From a virus (lineage: Duplodnaviria; Caudoviricetes), in IMG/VR virus record IMGVR_UViG_3300015607_004160: 64,000 nt of DNA. One strand, given 5' to 3'. Each line of letters begins with the position of its first letter. The first letter of the stretch is position 1. The position numbers were made by a program, and so were the translations under genes. Under the pieces are notes generated by a model. It ran no database searches. It worked only from the letters and a program-made list of their open reading frames with translations, and was not told the origin of the DNA. This document shows positions 3,714-63,978 of this stretch, in pieces.

Positions 3714-4297
3714 AAAAAATTAAAGTAAAAATATTAGGACTATCATATAGTCAAAGTCAAATTGGATCATATGTATTGGTTCTTTCTGAAATTAAAGGTG
3801 AGAAGCGAAAACTTCCAATGATTATTAAGCCAAATGAAGCTCAATATATCGCACTTAAAATGGAGAATATAGAAACTCCTCGACCATTGACTCAAGATTT
3901 ATTTAAGTCGTTTACAGATTCTCTTGGTGCGGAAGTAAGTGAGGTTTATATACATGCTATTGTAGAAGGTATATTTTACGCTAAGGCTATATTAACTAAT
4001 GCAATAGATAGTTATGAAATCAATTGTGGAGTTGGTGATGCTATATCACTAGCACTTATTTACAAATGTCCAATTTTAGTTTCGTCAGCAGTTATGGGAT
4101 CCGCTGGTATCTATATGTCTGATGATGGTGAGATATCAAAAGAAAACCAAGAGAAGAATCATTCAGATAGAGAAATTACACCTGGCGTAACAATTGAAAA
4201 TCTTGAGAAAATGCTTGAAAAGGCAGTTGAAAATGAAGAATATGAAATTGCTACTCAATTAAGAGATAGAATTAATCAATTAAAGTCTGGGGTTTAA
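3710..4297 (+). CDS. Bifunctional nuclease (DUF151) with C-terminal UVR motif
   Basis: LSYSQSQIGSYVLVL, RKLPMII, PRPLTQDLF, GIFYA, DAISLAL; C-terminal AVENEEYEIATQLRDRI. Confidence 0.85.
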   Translation: MKKIKVKILGLSYSQSQIGSYVLVLSEIKGEKRKLPMIIKPNEAQYIALKMENIETPRPLTQDLFKSFTDSLGAEVSEVYIHAIVEGIFYAKAILTNAIDSYEINCGVGDAISLALIYKCPILVSSAVMGSAGIYMSDDGEISKENQEKNHSDREITPGVTIENLEKMLEKAVENEEYEIATQLRDRINQLKSGV

Positions 4298-4303
4298 TAT
4301 ATA
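4295..4303 (+). promoter_or_regulatory. Putative late promoter TAATATATA
   Basis: One of more than 20 copies found just upstream of start codons; analogous to the T4 late promoter TATAAATA. Confidence 0.6.
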
Positions 4304-4307
4304 GATT

Positions 4308-4808
4308 ATGGGACACAGAATTAAAAAATTTAACGAATTAACAAATGAGCTTCAAAAAACTATTAAAGAAGCCAAAGATAAATTGTTAAATGCTATTCTA
4401 ACTGATACAGAAATATCTAAAGTAGAAAAACTTTGTTTAATAAGTGAAAATGATCTATTTAAAACAAATAGTTGGATATGTGACCCATTTCATGATGAAT
4501 ATTTTAAAGAATATGAAAGTCAATTAGCTAAAAAGGGGGTAACAAATCCATGTATTGATAGTTGGGTGCATAATAGAGATCCCTTTTCCAACAATGGAAC
4601 CGTGCTATTCAGGTTTCTGCGACATGAAACTGTTAATTTAGCGGAAATACTTGAGTACATGGATGAAGATGATAATGATGAGTTAATTACCATTTACACG
4701 AATAGAAGAACAAGTGATACACTTAAAATATCAAAATATGAATTTGTAGATACTATCTATGATTGGTGTATAAAAAATAAGTGTATCGCATTTGAAATAG
4801 ATTGGTAA
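4308..4808 (+). CDS. Hypothetical protein with N-terminal RIKKFNE tag
   Basis: 166-aa ORF starting MGHRIKKFNE. Confidence 0.75.
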   Translation: MGHRIKKFNELTNELQKTIKEAKDKLLNAILTDTEISKVEKLCLISENDLFKTNSWICDPFHDEYFKEYESQLAKKGVTNPCIDSWVHNRDPFSNNGTVLFRFLRHETVNLAEILEYMDEDDNDELITIYTNRRTSDTLKISKYEFVDTIYDWCIKNKCIAFEIDW

Positions 4809-4868
4809 ATAAAATAAATCGCAACTTTTAATACCATTCTTTATATAATTAAAAATAATTGTATTATA

Positions 4869-5825
4869 GTGCGGATTAAAAAGTTCAATGAATCATACAA
4901 TAAAGATATTTCATATTACTTATCAAAATTTACAGAAGTACATGGTGATAAATATGACTATCCTGATGTAGAAAAATTTTTTAAAAATAGTCAGTCTAAA
5001 ATTAATATACATTGTAAAAAATGTGGTAATATATTTAATCAGTCTATATCACATCATATATGGTCTAAATCTGGATGTAGAAATTGCTATGGAAATGCTC
5101 CTAATACAATTGATAAAATACTAAATAGGTCAGAAAAAATACACGGAGTTGGTCGATATTCATATCCAAATATTACCAATGAAAAAATTTCAGCATTTAG
5201 TAAAATTACAATATTGTGTAATAACTGTGGTAATTTATTTAAACAATCCGTTGCTGCTCATCTAAATAAAAAAAATGGGTGTAATAGATGTGTTAAAAGT
5301 AAAGTAGAAAATCTAATAGAAAACTACCTAATATCAAATAACATTGAATATGTTTCACAACATACATTTGATGGATGTGTATATAAGAGAAACTTATATT
5401 TTGACTTCTTCATTCCTAAATATAATTTATGTATAGAGTATGATGGTGAACAACATTTCAAATCAAGAAGAGACAGAGGTAGTCATAGTTTAGAACTACA
5501 AAGTATTAAAGATAATATTAAGAATCAATTTTGTCTTAAAAATTCCATAAATTTAGAAAGAATTATATATACAGACAACCTTTCAAAAAAACTTAAGGAA
5601 ATTTTAAATAAATATGGGTGTAAAGAAATTAAAAGTCTAAATGATGTTTCTATTTTATTTAATAAAAAGGCATCAAAATTTTGTTCCAAGTGTAAAAAAG
5701 AAAAAATTCTAGATGACTTTAACAAATCATCTAGAATGATAGATGGGTATAAATCATATTGTAGAGAATGCTCATCTGAAATGGGCAAAAAATACTATGA
5801 TACAAAAAATAAAAATAAAAAATGA
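4869..5825 (+). CDS. Putative homing endonuclease (CxxC repeats plus PD-(D/E)xK/DUF559-like domain)
   Basis: Two HGxxYxY..CxxC..H..GCxxC repeats; FDFFIP..LCIEYDGEQH..D.IKNQFC nuclease motif; C-terminal CxxC..CxxC; GTG start. Confidence 0.75.
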   Translation: MRIKKFNESYNKDISYYLSKFTEVHGDKYDYPDVEKFFKNSQSKINIHCKKCGNIFNQSISHHIWSKSGCRNCYGNAPNTIDKILNRSEKIHGVGRYSYPNITNEKISAFSKITILCNNCGNLFKQSVAAHLNKKNGCNRCVKSKVENLIENYLISNNIEYVSQHTFDGCVYKRNLYFDFFIPKYNLCIEYDGEQHFKSRRDRGSHSLELQSIKDNIKNQFCLKNSINLERIIYTDNLSKKLKEILNKYGCKEIKSLNDVSILFNKKASKFCSKCKKEKILDDFNKSSRMIDGYKSYCRECSSEMGKKYYDTKNKNKK

Positions 5826-16502: not shown

Positions 16503-17205
16503 ATTTAGTTAATTCATATACTTGACCATGATAATTACATTCTGAACAAGCAAAATTTCCGGAATAACAATCAGAGTCGAATATATCCGAATCACATTTT
16601 GGACAAACTCCAACTAAATTATCATCCCCACTTGATTCTTTAATTTTAGTAATTTTACTTAGCCCTTGCTTTTGAAAGTCATCAAAATTCATCACTCTTT
16701 TCCCTTTTGGCTCTGCTGATGTTGTGTAGTCTTGCTTCTTAGAGAAGGTACTCCTTAATGATTTTAGGTCTAATTTTCTTTCTCTACTTTTCTTACCTGT
16801 TCTAGCACCATGATTTTTACCCATTTCTTTTGCAGGTGTTTTTTGATACATTTTATCAGGACCAGGAAATGGATTAGAAATATCCCCTGATCCGATTGTT
16901 CCTCCGTTTCCAGACCAATTATTACCAATAGTTGATCCAGCATAAGATGATGGTTGTGCAGCAGTTACTGCTCCCATCCCACCAATACCAGCATTAGCAA
17001 AAGCTACTCCCCCAGATCCAACATCACCACCACTAACAGCACCCGCTGGACCACCCGTAGCACTTGTATCTTCAATTATAGAGTAGATATATTCCTTCTC
17101 TTTTTTATCAATAATTTGATTGATTTGTTTAGTAGATTTTTTCTCAAGAATCATTTGAGTTCTTAATTCTACTAACTCTTCTATGGTTAATTGATTTAAT
17201 TTCAT
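16495..17205 (-). CDS. Gly-rich protein with C-terminal zinc ribbon
   Basis: IIE|DTSATGG Gly-rich segment; CPKC..CSEC after IKES. Confidence 0.75.
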   Translation of the reverse strand: MKLNQLTIEELVELRTQMILEKKSTKQINQIIDKKEKEYIYSIIEDTSATGGPAGAVSGGDVGSGGVAFANAGIGGMGAVTAAQPSSYAGSTIGNNWSGNGGTIGSGDISNPFPGPDKMYQKTPAKEMGKNHGARTGKKSRERKLDLKSLRSTFSKKQDYTTSAEPKGKRVMNFDDFQKQGLSKITKIKESSGDDNLVGVCPKCDSDIFDSDCYSGNFACSECNYHGQVYELTKFE

Positions 17206-17261: not shown

Positions 17262-17900
17262 ATGTTGGACATAAAGAAGTTAGAGATAAATAAATTATTT
17301 AAAGAGTTTGAATATGTTAAATCTGATTATGAATATAAATCAGAAATAGTAAGAGAAGCCGATGTAGAATTTTTAAAAAGTATAGATACTATACTAAATA
17401 AAAGCGAAGAATTAAAATCAATCTACCATGATAAGGTAGATATAAAAATAAAAGACAAAATTGAAAAAAGAACACAAGATATTCATATTGAAGAAAGTGA
17501 TGATGGTAGATTCGAAGTTGAGATCAGTATTGAGGAAAATAATCATCAAACGAATATTAGACCAAATAAAATAAAAAAATTATATCGTCAAATAGTTAAG
17601 ATCACACACCCCGATAAAGTAGAACAAGAAAGACTGAACACACTTTATATAGAAGCATCTAAATTTTATAACGAAAATGATATAATTGGAATTTATAAAA
17701 TATGTGATGAGCTATCCATACCATACGAGGTAGAAGATGATGATATCTTACTGGTAAAAGAAAATATTTCAATTTTTAAAGATAGAATTTCTTTCTTAGA
17801 AAATACCTTCACTTGGAAGTGGTTTAATGAAAATGATGACAATAAAGTTGAATTAGTTTTAAAATATATAAGGAGTCAAATCATTGGTATTAAAAATTAA
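17262..17900 (+). CDS. J-domain-containing protein
   Basis: IKKLYRQIVKITHPDK (HPD motif). Confidence 0.7.
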   Translation: MLDIKKLEINKLFKEFEYVKSDYEYKSEIVREADVEFLKSIDTILNKSEELKSIYHDKVDIKIKDKIEKRTQDIHIEESDDGRFEVEISIEENNHQTNIRPNKIKKLYRQIVKITHPDKVEQERLNTLYIEASKFYNENDIIGIYKICDELSIPYEVEDDDILLVKENISIFKDRISFLENTFTWKWFNENDDNKVELVLKYIRSQIIGIKN

Positions 17901-17911
17901 ATATATACCTT

Positions 17912-18142
17912 ATGAGTAAAATAAATAAATACGAAGATTTTAAAAATGTTAATGAATCCATGACTAATGATTCAGTACAAGATCTAATACAAAAAGCCAA
18001 AAGAATGGTTTCTAAAGATCAAATCCAAAAATTCATTCAGGATAATCAATCAGAGGTTGAAAGAGTTAAAGATTTATTAACAGATGAAAATGGTGGTATA
18101 GATTATAATAAGGTCTCTAAGTTTATTCAAAAAAATATCTAA
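17912..18142 (+). CDS. Small protein with N-terminal tag
   Basis: MSKINKYEDFKNVNES; AAATATATA upstream. Confidence 0.7.
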   Translation: MSKINKYEDFKNVNESMTNDSVQDLIQKAKRMVSKDQIQKFIQDNQSEVERVKDLLTDENGGIDYNKVSKFIQKNI

Positions 18143-18144
18143 TT

Positions 18145-18951
18145 ATGCACGTTATATATTCGGTACATATCGTAGATACCATAAATCTTAAAGACGCGAA
18201 AAGTAAAATAAATGGTAAGTTATTGAATGAGACCATCTCGGAACTATTTTATGATATGGGTGGTAAATTACTAGCTATTTATAATTATGGTGCAATAAGT
18301 TTTGCTAATTATGATAAATCCAGCTCTGATGAGATAGTGAAATTAGTTAAATCTATATCCGAAGATACCGCTGAATATAATGTTACCGATGAAGAAATAA
18401 AAATTGATGTTTATAATACTGAAACAGAAGAAGAAGAAGAAAAATATGGCAAATTTTCATTTGAAGACAATATATTATATGTACCTGAAAAGATGTTTGT
18501 AGACAAAAACATGTTTAGAATAGTTATGTTTAATTTATCACAAACTGTAACTATGGATTACTATAGTTATATCGGTGATAGTCTATTAAATAATACTAAA
18601 AAATTAACCAAAGAATTAGAATTAAAAGGTAAAATAGATATATCAAAATCAGAAATGATGAAATTTATTGGTAAAAGCTTAAATGCAAAAACCAATGTTG
18701 TTGACACACTATACATTTTTGATTCACCAGATTTAACATGGGAAAATCCCGATATAGATGAATTACATAAATTTTTGGTATATGAATTTGATTTAAAATC
18801 TAGATTTAGAGAGCTAGAATACTCATTCAAAATTGTAGATGATAATCTACAAACATTCAAAGACATCTATCAACATAAGGAATCGTATGTCATGGAAACA
18901 ATTGTTATTATACTTATCTTGATTGAGGTTATTAAATCTTTTACTGAATAA
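18145..18951 (+). CDS. RMD1/DUF155 family protein
   Basis: YNYGAISF, LSQTV.MDYY, DSPDLTWE, FDLKSRF, C-terminal TM METIVIILILIEVI. Confidence 0.85.
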   Translation: MHVIYSVHIVDTINLKDAKSKINGKLLNETISELFYDMGGKLLAIYNYGAISFANYDKSSSDEIVKLVKSISEDTAEYNVTDEEIKIDVYNTETEEEEEKYGKFSFEDNILYVPEKMFVDKNMFRIVMFNLSQTVTMDYYSYIGDSLLNNTKKLTKELELKGKIDISKSEMMKFIGKSLNAKTNVVDTLYIFDSPDLTWENPDIDELHKFLVYEFDLKSRFRELEYSFKIVDDNLQTFKDIYQHKESYVMETIVIILILIEVIKSFTE

Positions 18952-18954
18952 TTA

Positions 18955-19344
18955 TTATACCTCTTCTAAACATTGAATCAATCCTTCAAAAGTATCACAT
19001 TTATAAAATCTATAGGATAATTGGTCATATACATAATACCATTCATCATCAATTTTTCTAACTGCAAATTGAGAATTCATCATTAATGAAGAAACCAGTC
19101 CATTGCAATTTTTATTACAATAACGAATCCATTTGTCGATTTCTATCATATGGTTGCCCCTTAGTCCTTGTCCAAATAGACTTTTTAATTTTTCTATTTC
19201 CATTTTTGTGAATCCGTCCAGCTTTTTGGGGCCGTTCCAATCTGTACCTGATACTATATTATCATCTCCAGCAAACTTCTCCCATTCCTCAACTTCTATT
19301 TCATGGTATAGTTTATTAAAACTTTCAAATAATTTAATTTTCAT
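18955..19344 (-). CDS. Hypothetical protein with N-terminal tag
   Basis: MKIKLFESF; C-terminal DDEWYYV..YKCDTFEGL. Confidence 0.75.
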   Translation of the reverse strand: MKIKLFESFNKLYHEIEVEEWEKFAGDDNIVSGTDWNGPKKLDGFTKMEIEKLKSLFGQGLRGNHMIEIDKWIRYCNKNCNGLVSSLMMNSQFAVRKIDDEWYYVYDQLSYRFYKCDTFEGLIQCLEEV

Positions 19345-19906
19345 CTCTCTTCCCTAAATATTTAAATAGTATATATTGAAGCTCCGGAGTATTTTCTTCC
19401 CATACTCGAATAGGATCCTCCATCAACTTATCATTCCATATTTCAACTTGACCAATTCTGTCAAGATTTCTTATTATTGAAACGTCTTCTGGTATATCAA
19501 CAGCCTTTTCAGCTTTTTGATATCTATCATATATATCCATTCCTGATAACATGCTCTTAAAGGCAGCCGTTTTATCCATTGATATTGCAATGGGGTGTTT
19601 GATCCATTTTATATTTTTATATAAGAATTTTTGATTTTTTGAATAAAAAAATCTATCAACTAATAGTATTCTATGATAATAGAAATCAAAATCATATTTA
19701 CTTATTACAATAACATCATTAAATCTATTATTTGTTTTAAGATAAATATCTATTTTATCTGCTAAACCAGGTGTAATATCATATTCTATATATAAGAAAA
19801 ATTCACCACTATCTTTTTTTGATAAATATTTTTCATCAACTTCAGATAGTAAGTAATCTAAGTATTCCTCAGCATTAAATGATTCATTAAACCTTCTTAC
19901 CCTCAT
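19334..19906 (-). CDS. Hypothetical protein with N-terminal tag
   Basis: MRVRRFNESF. Confidence 0.75.
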   Translation of the reverse strand: MRVRRFNESFNAEEYLDYLLSEVDEKYLSKKDSGEFFLYIEYDITPGLADKIDIYLKTNNRFNDVIVISKYDFDFYYHRILLVDRFFYSKNQKFLYKNIKWIKHPIAISMDKTAAFKSMLSGMDIYDRYQKAEKAVDIPEDVSIIRNLDRIGQVEIWNDKLMEDPIRVWEENTPELQYILFKYLGKRDEN

Positions 19907-62497: not shown

Positions 62498-62917
62498 TTA
62501 ATAAATGAAAAAATCTTTTAGATGTGAGACATCTTCACAGATAATTGATATATCGAGGCTTCTTCTGAAATCGGGATTATATTTATATCTATTGGTATTT
62601 TTTAGGAAATTTAAAATTGTATTCATTTCGGATGTAGAATCAGTGACCTTATCATACACTGTTATTTCTTGTATATAGTCAGTGGTGTCTGAAAAAAATT
62701 GATATTCCTTTACATTAAAAACTGTACCAAGCGTTATATCTACATCTAATTCTGACCTATTGATAATACCAAATGTTAGGTTTTGTGTTATATAACCAAC
62801 TTTATCGTTTTCTATTTCACATATAATATATTTTGTTCCATAGTCAAATAGCCGATAATGAATTAATCCTTTATCAACTAATATGTATCTATTTTCAAAC
62901 AAAAATTTACTATTCAT
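62498..62917 (-). CDS. Hypothetical protein
   Basis: 139-aa ORF coupled to the upstream gene. Confidence 0.65.
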   Translation of the reverse strand: MNSKFLFENRYILVDKGLIHYRLFDYGTKYIICEIENDKVGYITQNLTFGIINRSELDVDITLGTVFNVKEYQFFSDTTDYIQEITVYDKVTDSTSEMNTILNFLKNTNRYKYNPDFRRSLDISIICEDVSHLKDFFIY

Positions 62918-63284
62918 CAAAATCTGCTAAAGGTGTATCTTGAAGTAATCTTTTTCTATCCTTATTTCTCGCCTTCTTTGTATCTGTAGAAGTATACATA
63001 GTGGAGGGAACCATATAAGTTTGATTTAGATCAACTGGCTGACGATAAGACTCTAATTTGAAATTATCATTTGCTAATTCTTTAACTATTGATAACATGT
63101 GTTGTCTAATGTCTAAACTATTTAGCACATCTAGAGCATATCCGTATTTGTGTGCCATATAGTTTATAAAAGACATAGGAATATAAAGATATCCGTTGTC
63201 TTTGACATTATACCAAAAGTCTAAATTAACAGCAAGTTCTTTTGGAACAAGTATTGATAATTCTGTTTTAATTGTTTCTAACAT
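62910..63284 (-). CDS. Hypothetical protein immediately downstream of the RNase P RNA
   Basis: Start reassigned to MLETIK; the ORF-track N-terminal 58 aa overlap the structured RNA. Confidence 0.7.
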   Translation of the reverse strand: MLETIKTELSILVPKELAVNLDFWYNVKDNGYLYIPMSFINYMAHKYGYALDVLNSLDIRQHMLSIVKELANDNFKLESYRQPVDLNQTYMVPSTMYTSTDTKKARNKDRKRLLQDTPLADFDE

Positions 63285-63299
63285 ATTTATATTTTTAAA

Positions 63300-63520
63300 A
63301 AGATGATGAGCGTGCCCGCGATTCTGTTTTATTCTATCATTTATCTCACCTTGCGGTGGCCTTTCGGCTGCCCTAACCCGACCATTATTGAGAAACCGAC
63401 ACTCTAGGTCTGTACAGGTTGCTACTTCTTTGGTATAACGACTTATTAGGTCTTCCAAATTAGGTTTTGTAGTCGCGAAGTTCCTCTAGTTTTCACCAGC
63501 GATAGATCCTCTTTCATCTT
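63300..63520 (-). ncRNA. rnpB: Minimal RNase P RNA (catalytic domain intact, specificity domain nearly deleted)
   Basis: GC-rich island: P1 AAGAUGA/UCAUCUU, P2 UCUAUC/GAUAGA, P3 CUGGU-GAAA-ACUAG, CR-I GAGGAACUUCGCGAC, CR-V ACAGAAUCGCGGGCA, P5 CUAC/GUAG, P6 AACC/GGUU, P7 UUUGG/CCAAA, P15-17 with L15 GGU, CR-IV AGAUAAAU. Confidence 0.85.
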
Positions 63521-63978
63521 GATAATATTTCGAGATTAAATTCTCGTCGATTACGTTCTTTGTAATTATCAATAAATTTTCTTAATAAAGGATGAATATG
63601 CTTATATTCAATCGGTGTGACATCATCAATTTTTCCTATATATTCTTCAAAGACATAGAAAAGATTCTCAGGAGTGACCTTCATTGTATTAATCATACAT
63701 AGATAGTTTAACACCCTTTCCTTTTTTGGATCTATTGTTTCATTACTTCTATTCCATTTTGCCATCCAGGCTAGCTTTAATGACATTGCTTCAAAGTCTC
63801 TCAAAACAACTCCTTGCCACCAATCGGAAAATTCATCATTCCGAACAATTGGGTCAAATCCAATCATAGATTGATATTTTTCCCAAATATAACTTATATG
63901 AGAATTAACAAGGTATGAATCTTTGACAACCTTGTGAAATAATAAAGAAAATGCTATTATGTTATTTGTCTTACTCAT
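63514..63978 (-). CDS. Hypothetical protein with C-terminal RREFNLEIL tag variant
   Basis: 154-aa ORF; its stop codon overlaps the 5' end of the RNase P RNA. Confidence 0.75.
   Translation of the reverse strand: MSKTNNIIAFSLLFHKVVKDSYLVNSHISYIWEKYQSMIGFDPIVRNDEFSDWWQGVVLRDFEAMSLKLAWMAKWNRSNETIDPKKERVLNYLCMINTMKVTPENLFYVFEEYIGKIDDVTPIEYKHIHPLLRKFIDNYKERNRREFNLEILSR

Follow-up and report, generated by a model that had tools for sequence, protein, structure and literature searches.

As far as we are aware, RNase P RNA is regarded as a universal cellular ribozyme. Its bacterial versions are about 330-400 nt in length, the E. coli M1 RNA (encoded by rnpB) having 377 nt, and combine a catalytic domain (C-domain), which is the part that binds the protein subunit RnpA, with a specificity domain (S-domain) formed by P8-P14, which reads the T-loop/D-loop elbow of the tRNA; loss of the S-domain hence removes the check on this elbow. 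The archaeal type T RNA (Rfam: RF02357) of Pyrobaculum and other Thermoproteaceae is about 200 nt long and has kept the catalytic domain while losing most of the S-domain; its C-domain is archaeal, with a P2 helix of 3 bp and a linker of 2 nt between P5 and P15 (PMC3579882). Likewise, the C-domain of the E. coli RNA by itself ('Eco CP RPR') cleaves substrates with reduced efficiency, is active both alone and with the C5 protein, depends on a P6-like contact and can dispense with P18 (PMC5839562). Full-text searches of the literature, a comprehensive review from 2024 included, yielded no account of an RNase P RNA encoded by a virus, and Rfam 15 contains no family that detects an S-domain-less phage form. 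Here we describe a 221-nt RNase P-like RNA from a large uncultured phage, which retains P1-P5, P7, P15-P17, the P4 and P6 pseudoknots and the conserved regions CR-I, CR-IV and CR-V, and in which P8-P14 is reduced to a 21-nt stub.

The RNA lies at positions 63300..63520 on the minus strand of the window, the whole 64-kb stretch of DNA that was analysed (RNA position i corresponds to window position 63521 - i), and the genome of the phage spans at least 204 kb. It is housed in an intergenic gap of 229 nt flanked by two orphan genes on the same strand. The upstream gene, taken from the list of open reading frames and syntenic in related huge phages, codes for 154 aa (63514..63978, minus strand), and its TGA stop (63516-63514) falls within the 5' strand of P1; the downstream gene codes for 124 aa (62910..63284, minus strand) and begins with an ATG at 63284, 15 nt past the RNA. 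Searches with six flanking proteins, that of the upstream gene included, recovered no Pfam or PHROGs family. Two public contigs (L163 and L164) are identical to the window across the at least 10 kb compared, and on the identical public contigs the downstream gene is likewise called as a 124-aa product with an ATG start, leaving the 229-nt gap empty. A preliminary description of this DNA had held the RNA to be masked by a spurious ORF extension: a TTG-started ORF (62910-63458) that overlaps 159 nt of the RNA does exist, but it is mechanical only, the public gene calls using the ATG. The RNA sequence is the same in four independent public assemblies. The G+C content of the gap is 0.42 as against ~0.25-0.33 in the flanks, and thus the enrichment, which had been described as a GC-rich island, is real but modest. 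A promoter and terminator scan at the RNA gave no signal beyond chance, with a weak promoter-like site ending at 63522. The minimum-free-energy z-score of the RNA is -0.26; since thermodynamic folding alone is unremarkable, we left it out as support for the RNA. No more than 10 kb from the RNA, L163/L164 also carry a gene for an EF-G-like translation GTPase of 656 aa with the complete EF-G domain set (17523-19493), as well as genes for gyrase B and topoisomerase IV A-like subunits and an adenylate kinase (1-1578, 4110-5453 and 16519-17091). The EF-G-like factor is a further sign of a large phage with translation-related genes of its own.

Examination of the minus strand located every helix and motif of the preliminary description at its proposed place. 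P1, identified from sequence and covariation, pairs AAGAUGA (63514..63520) with UCAUCUU (63300..63306) and is extended by GAG/CUC; P2 is a 6-bp helix of UCUAUC (63501..63506) and GAUAGA (63333-63338); and P3 is the hairpin CUGGU-GAAA-ACUAG (63486..63499), an element that ranges from 10 to 57 nt among full-length members of the family described below. CR-I (GAGGAA) is followed by the 5' strand of P4, ACU[U]CGCGA (together 63473..63486, with the bulged U at 63478), which pairs with UCGCG-GGC (63314..63321); CR-V, AAAACAGAA, which contains ACAGAA, is situated just 5' of the latter strand (63322-63330). P4 of the window RNA thus consists of three positions, the bulged U and five base pairs, the outermost P4a position being an A.C mismatch, which we count against our main reading. 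The P4 of E. coli, AAG[U]CCGGG/CCCGGCUU, read at the rnpB locus itself, has the same layout, in agreement with the earlier statement that the pairing and the bulged U are kept. P5 joins CUAC (63469..63472) to GUAG (63422-63425) and is followed by the J5/15 CAA (63419-63421), the equivalent of C247-A248-A249 of E. coli, while the P6 pseudoknot joins AACC (63463..63466) to GGUU (63394-63397) in the loop of P17. The arm made up of P15 (CCUG/UAGG), P16 (GACC/GGUC) and P17 (GAG/CUC) extends over 63372..63418, and the GGGU on the 3' side of L15 (63376-63379) is equivalent to G291-U294 of E. coli. Two GNRA hairpins, GCC-GAAA-GGC and CACC-GCAA-GGUG, take the position of P18 (63347..63368), and are followed by CR-IV, AGAUAAAUG (63338..63346). 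Finally, P7 (UUUGG/CCAAA, 63429..63459) encloses a stub of 21 nt (63434-63454) with a 3-bp GAC/GUC hairpin at the place where P8-P14 would be expected.

Partial blastn matches to this RNA were recovered from two uncultured huge phages, LR745206 (634 kb) and LR756501 (735 kb; LR756503 is a duplicate record), whose copies, when read by eye, keep the architecture while both sides of P1, P2 and P4 are changed. Motif scans of IMG/VR yielded further copies, and from ten phage copies we derived a covariance model, R1, that contains the nested helices only, to the exclusion of P4 and P6. R1 matches the window at 63297-63523 with 208.6 bits (E = 1.6e-54) and recovers 79 relatives (66 of them distinct) from large phage contigs, the uncut copies ranging from ~196 to 372 nt. 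Many of these come from contigs 300-520 kb long, among them several with terminal repeats. When ten sequences were aligned with MAFFT and the result checked by hand, 91.7% of the cells pair as against 33-43% with slid partners, and 37 of the 56 pairs are changed on both sides. Likewise, pairing as proposed occurs in 96.5% of cells across the 66 distinct sequences (34-40% with slid partners), with both-sided changes in 1019 cells (86-169 with slid partners); this alignment was fitted to the nested helices of R1 and is biased towards them, whereas P4 and P6 were absent from R1. For these two helices the pairing is 98.0% and 93.4%, with four of eight pairs of P4 changed on both sides and all four pairs of P6 covarying; the latter occurs in variants such as AACC/GGUU, CAGCU/AGCUG, CUGCA/UGCAG and AUUGCU/AGCAAU. 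In the same 66 sequences P1 is paired at 95% (7/7 pairs changed on both sides), P2 at 97% (5/6 pairs covarying), and P15, P16 and P17 at 92%, 94-99% and 99.5% respectively, all of them covarying.

Superimposed on this variation are nucleotides that hardly change. The bulged U of P4 is found in 64 of the 66 sequences, GAGGAA in 60-65, the GCAA of J5/15 in 64-66, the CGGGU of L15 in 60-65 and the near-invariant ACA.AA of CR-V in 61-66; eight of the nine positions of CR-IV (AGAU.AAUG) are conserved in 65-66 of the 66, the variable one being a G in E. coli. Among them are the nucleotides that, in the E. coli M1 RNA, form the active site and the loop that binds the CCA. We take homology, structural conservation and selection on the structure as demonstrated. 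In one relative (L020:8614-9318, minus strand) an insertion of ~480 nt interrupts the RNA gene in the region of P16/P17, and a second (L072) is arranged likewise. Both halves of the split L020 gene match R1, and the insertion carries an ORF for a 136-aa homing endonuclease with HNH_3 and NUMOD4 domains (L020:8707-9114, minus strand; Pfam E = 2.7e-14). An Rfam search of this insertion matched no group I intron model; it might be an intron capable of self-splicing or else an insertion that disrupts the gene.

The preliminary description had expected the RNA to score poorly against standard models, and this proved accurate: the whole window searched against Rfam at the gathering threshold recovered no RNase P family, and the segment 63200-63620 (421 nt) searched at E<=10 recovered no RNase P match, RF02357 included. 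The window RNA and its relatives fall below the gathering threshold of the bacterial type A model RF00010 (100 bits), relatives scoring 41-54 bits. Nevertheless, three members of the family match RF00010 over the full model, at E-values spanning 1e-13 to 2e-9 (L049, 53.7 bits, E = 1e-13; L061, 46.8 bits; L092, 41.1 bits), and the RF00010-matching members are detected by R1 at E = 5e-27 to 8e-28. In the case of L049 the alignment to RF00010 runs through P1-P5, J5/15, P15-P17, CR-IV and CR-V, while ~140 S-domain positions of the model are skipped. Other members match the archaeal model RF00373. The reverse test consisted of scanning prokaryotic genome contigs for the phage motif and searching the hits with R1 and then with RF00010. 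Here R1, which derives from mini RNAs only, matched five RNAs with E-values between 5e-12 and 7e-5, all of which exceed the gathering threshold of RF00010 (249.8, 197.1, 174.2, 127.1 and 123.4 bits). The best of this set, L152, has 162 nt inside P5, as compared to 51 model positions in R1 and 43 nt in the window RNA; its core is near-identical in sequence to the window RNA and carries GAGGAACUUCCGGACUAC, UAGAUAAAUG and ACAGAAUCCGG. These reciprocal matches tie the family to RF00010 in both directions, the link of the window RNA itself being transitive through its relatives. Together with the covariation, they bear out the earlier proposal of a phage-encoded, bacterial-type, catalytic-domain RNase P RNA.

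R1 did not match E. coli rnpB, even with filters off, and an nhmmer search with a family HMM placed its top match on the correct stretch of M1 in rnpB, though weakly, with only 6.3 bits. RF00010 searched against four whole phage records returned no match and hence no canonical RNase P RNA in them. Most pattern matches in the genomes of cultured bacteria (Ruegeria, Lonsdalea and Bacteroides, among others) were rejected as chance occurrences, those tested matching neither R1 nor RF00010. Two of the full-size RNAs recovered by the reverse test (L116:2615-3021 and L119:310-711; ~400 nt, with 127 and 123 bits for RF00010) are closely bordered by tRNA genes on two short contigs (4.8 and 5.4 kb) that had been binned to Anaerolineae; these RNAs may be full-length copies carried by phages, and hence intermediates between the cellular and the mini forms. 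RNAs of the phage type were also observed on contigs binned into bacterial or archaeal metagenome-assembled genomes (L155, L105, L127, L138, L142, L150 and L154). Among these, L155 (JBBACR010000001.1; 425,361 bp; R1 score 165.1 bits), labelled as a Candidatus Pacearchaeota genome, matches the IMG/VR huge phage 3300035208_004923 in both size and R1 score (165.1 bits) and is probably a mis-binned phage.

Across the family the interior of P7 ranges from 6 to 131 nt with a median of 29 nt, and in the few long inserts, which are mostly AU-rich hairpins, CR-II/III could not be identified. In the window RNA P8-P14 and CR-II/III are absent; the preliminary description had named P9-P14 and CR-II/III as lost. 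The element at the position of P18 is also optional, with a family median of 4 nt. The lengths of P3, of the P7 insert and of the P18 region vary freely by non-multiples of three, and in 71 of the 79 family members each of the six frames is interrupted by stop codons; on these two grounds we consider the RNA to be non-coding.

Many copies of the RNA are associated with tRNA genes, which are present in 38 of the 60 family loci and in many of them adjoin the RNA at a distance of 0-4 nt. Certain copies (e.g. in L036, L046, L066 and L074) are wedged between two tRNAs, and these would be freed by tRNA processing itself. The genomes of four of the five relatives have 41-66 tRNA genes. Only ~19-28% of the 414 tRNA genes in the family loci encode the CCA, which would have suited the conserved GGU of L15; we list this against the main reading, but regard it as uninformative on how that loop is used. 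For the window copy, no tRNA gene was found in the 64 kb of the window or in the 10 kb past its end. Homologs of its upstream orphan gene occur directly upstream of the RNA in L001 (LR745206), L042/L082, L008, L025 and L016. In this syntenic group 59-61 tRNA genes were counted in the genomes G001 and LR745206 and only four in G004. Several loci with the mini RNA include tRNAs with a CTA anticodon (labelled 'Pyl' by ARAGORN; amber suppressors), namely L035:8347-8420, L051:3246-3318, L053:3664-3735, L058:1869-1941, L077:4924-4996 and L083:7677-7748, which hints at a recoding of TAG in those phages. In L100 a match to the HDV-like ribozyme RF02682 (1366-1434, plus strand; 40 bits against a gathering score of 44) was observed directly 3' of a tRNA, in a tRNA array that also contains a mini RNase P RNA. 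The match is similar to the theta ribozymes described in association with tRNAs (PMC10879173).

A gene for RnpA (Pfam: PF00825; 46-50 bits; 99-115 aa) was detected in three of the 20 phage records checked, all of which have the mini RNA, and is absent from the remaining 17. The three are LR745206 (L031:1501-1809, plus strand), G001 (L032:1501-1797, minus strand) and G004 (L101), with genome sizes of 476-635 kb, and all of them share the upstream gene of the window and so belong to the syntenic group. In the two proteins that were translated, those of LR745206 and G001, the RNR motif is present within KRAVDRNRIKR. The rnpA gene is far from that of the mini RNA in LR745206 and G004. Neither the 64 kb of the window nor the gene calls for the 10 kb past it include an RnpA. 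The earlier suggestion that the RNA may borrow the RnpA of the host has to be modified, since three related huge phages encode their own; the other 17 records do not.

Taken together, we consider it probable that the gap encodes a bacterial type-A RNase P RNA that has been reduced to its catalytic domain and acts as follows. The RNA would be excised from a longer transcript of the same strand, fold around P4 and bind RnpA, either encoded by the phage, as in the closest huge-phage relatives, or supplied by the host. It would then trim the 5' leaders from pre-tRNAs, mainly those of the phage itself, recognizing its substrates solely via acceptor stem, leader and 3' end, with no contact to the elbow. 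In our reading the RNA is an active catalytic subunit for pre-tRNAs, its catalysis, partner and substrates being inferred. More tentatively, and with rather less confidence, one may entertain that large phages possess a self-sufficient minimal RNase P, with a C-domain-only ribozyme and, in some lineages, an RnpA of their own; such an enzyme might mature the set of phage tRNAs independently of both the host enzyme and elbow recognition.

The gap might instead contain no RNA gene at all, the sequence being an N-terminal extension of the downstream protein or an unrelated structured RNA with chance motifs. Although the TTG-started ORF overlaps 159 nt of the RNA, the minimum-free-energy z-score is unremarkable and the window has no Rfam match, we regard this as extremely improbable: the coding version is rejected in light of the six-frame stops, the length changes that are not in triplets and the gene calls at the ATG on identical contigs, and the reciprocal detection between R1 and RF00010 argues against both versions. 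It is also unlikely, if less so, that the RNA is a non-catalytic derivative of RNase P which serves as a decoy or sponge for host RnpA or for the 3' ends of pre-tRNAs, and which would throttle the maturation of host tRNAs or redirect the host protein. Such a role would suit a domain that binds RnpA, the lack of rnpA in 17 of the 20 records with the mini RNA and the position of the window copy away from tRNA genes. A decoy, however, has no need for a near-invariant bulged U in P4, the adenosines of J5/15, CR-IV and ACAGAA, nor for covariation in P6; moreover, many relatives are within tRNA operons, and RnpA is encoded in the genomes of some. We disfavor an inactive decoy because the active-site nucleotides are conserved.

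An active ribozyme need not have tRNAs as its main substrates, and might act on phage or host mRNAs or on structured RNAs, in the control of expression or in host shut-off. The loss of the S-domain, with which the elbow check is dropped, and the placement of the window copy among orphan protein genes, away from tRNAs, would agree with this. There is also precedent in bacterial RNase P, which cuts several non-tRNA substrates (review: PMC11143913). At the level of the family, however, the RNA goes together with tRNA arrays; the GGU loop that binds the CCA is conserved, and no candidate target was identified, and on balance we hold this version to be improbable. Should the more tentative reading of a self-sufficient minimal RNase P of large phages be true, this enzyme would be the first RNase P known to be encoded by a virus, and no natural bacterial-type RNase P would have been shown before it to function in the absence of a specificity domain. 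The phages would then mature a tRNA set of their own (~40-66 genes in the relatives), inclusive of suppressor and odd-shaped tRNAs, and the range of sizes in the family (~196 to 372 nt in uncut copies) would amount to a natural deletion series on the purpose of the S-domain. A natural bacterial-type form that lacks the S-domain bears on the long-standing question of the share of the C-domain in substrate recognition and catalysis, and the many covarying natural variants make up a directly assayable set. The RNA also adds to the translation-related functions of huge phages, alongside tRNAs, RnpA and the EF-G-like factor in the phage of the window, and exposes a blind spot of genome annotation. 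What the window copy in particular contributes is the synteny with a conserved orphan gene, a site outside tRNA arrays and the connection with a phage rnpA.

Comparison with type A (RF00010) reveals a common order and topology of P1-P5, P7 and P15-P17, the P4 and P6 pseudoknots and the motifs GAGGAA, GCAA, CGGGU, AGAU.AAUG and ACAGAA. The features of membership in type A that are present comprise a P4 with the bulged U and CR-I/CR-V, a P15-L15(GGU)-P16-P17 arm whose P17 loop forms P6, a CR-IV (AGAUNAAUG) that runs into the 3' strand of P2, and the J5/15 adenosines equivalent to A248. Placing the E. coli and the window sequences side by side, CR-I with the 5' strand of P4 reads GAGGAAAG[U]CCGGG and GAGGAACU[U]CGCGA, J5/15 GGAGCAAGG and GUAGCAACC, L15 CCCGGGUAGG and GUCGGGUUAGG, CR-IV AGAUGAAUGA and AGAUAAAUGA (in short form AGAUGAAUG and AGAUAAAUG), and CR-V ACAGAACCCGG and ACAGAAUCGCG, respectively. 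The window RNA differs from type A in having 21 nt in place of P8-P14 and CR-II/III, in its length of 221 nt versus ~330-400 nt, in being encoded by a phage, and in P18, which is represented by two small GNRA hairpins in the window and is missing from most relatives. The full-size RNAs of L116, L119 and L152 have a core very close to that of the phage RNA, but possess a complete S-domain, with lengths of 328-413 nt and RF00010 scores of 123-250 bits. In contrast to type T, P2 of the phage RNA comprises 6 bp, the linker is the 3-nt CAA, and the P15-P16-P17/P6 arm, with the GGU, is of the bacterial kind; given these differences in P2, linker and arm, and the lack of a match to RF02357, we rejected membership in type T, and read the two as independent, convergent reductions. 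Eco CP RPR and the phage family are both S-domain-less versions of type A, with the phage family keeping a covarying P6 and being mostly devoid of P18; however, Eco CP RPR is a laboratory deletion construct, whereas the phage RNA is a natural form under selection.
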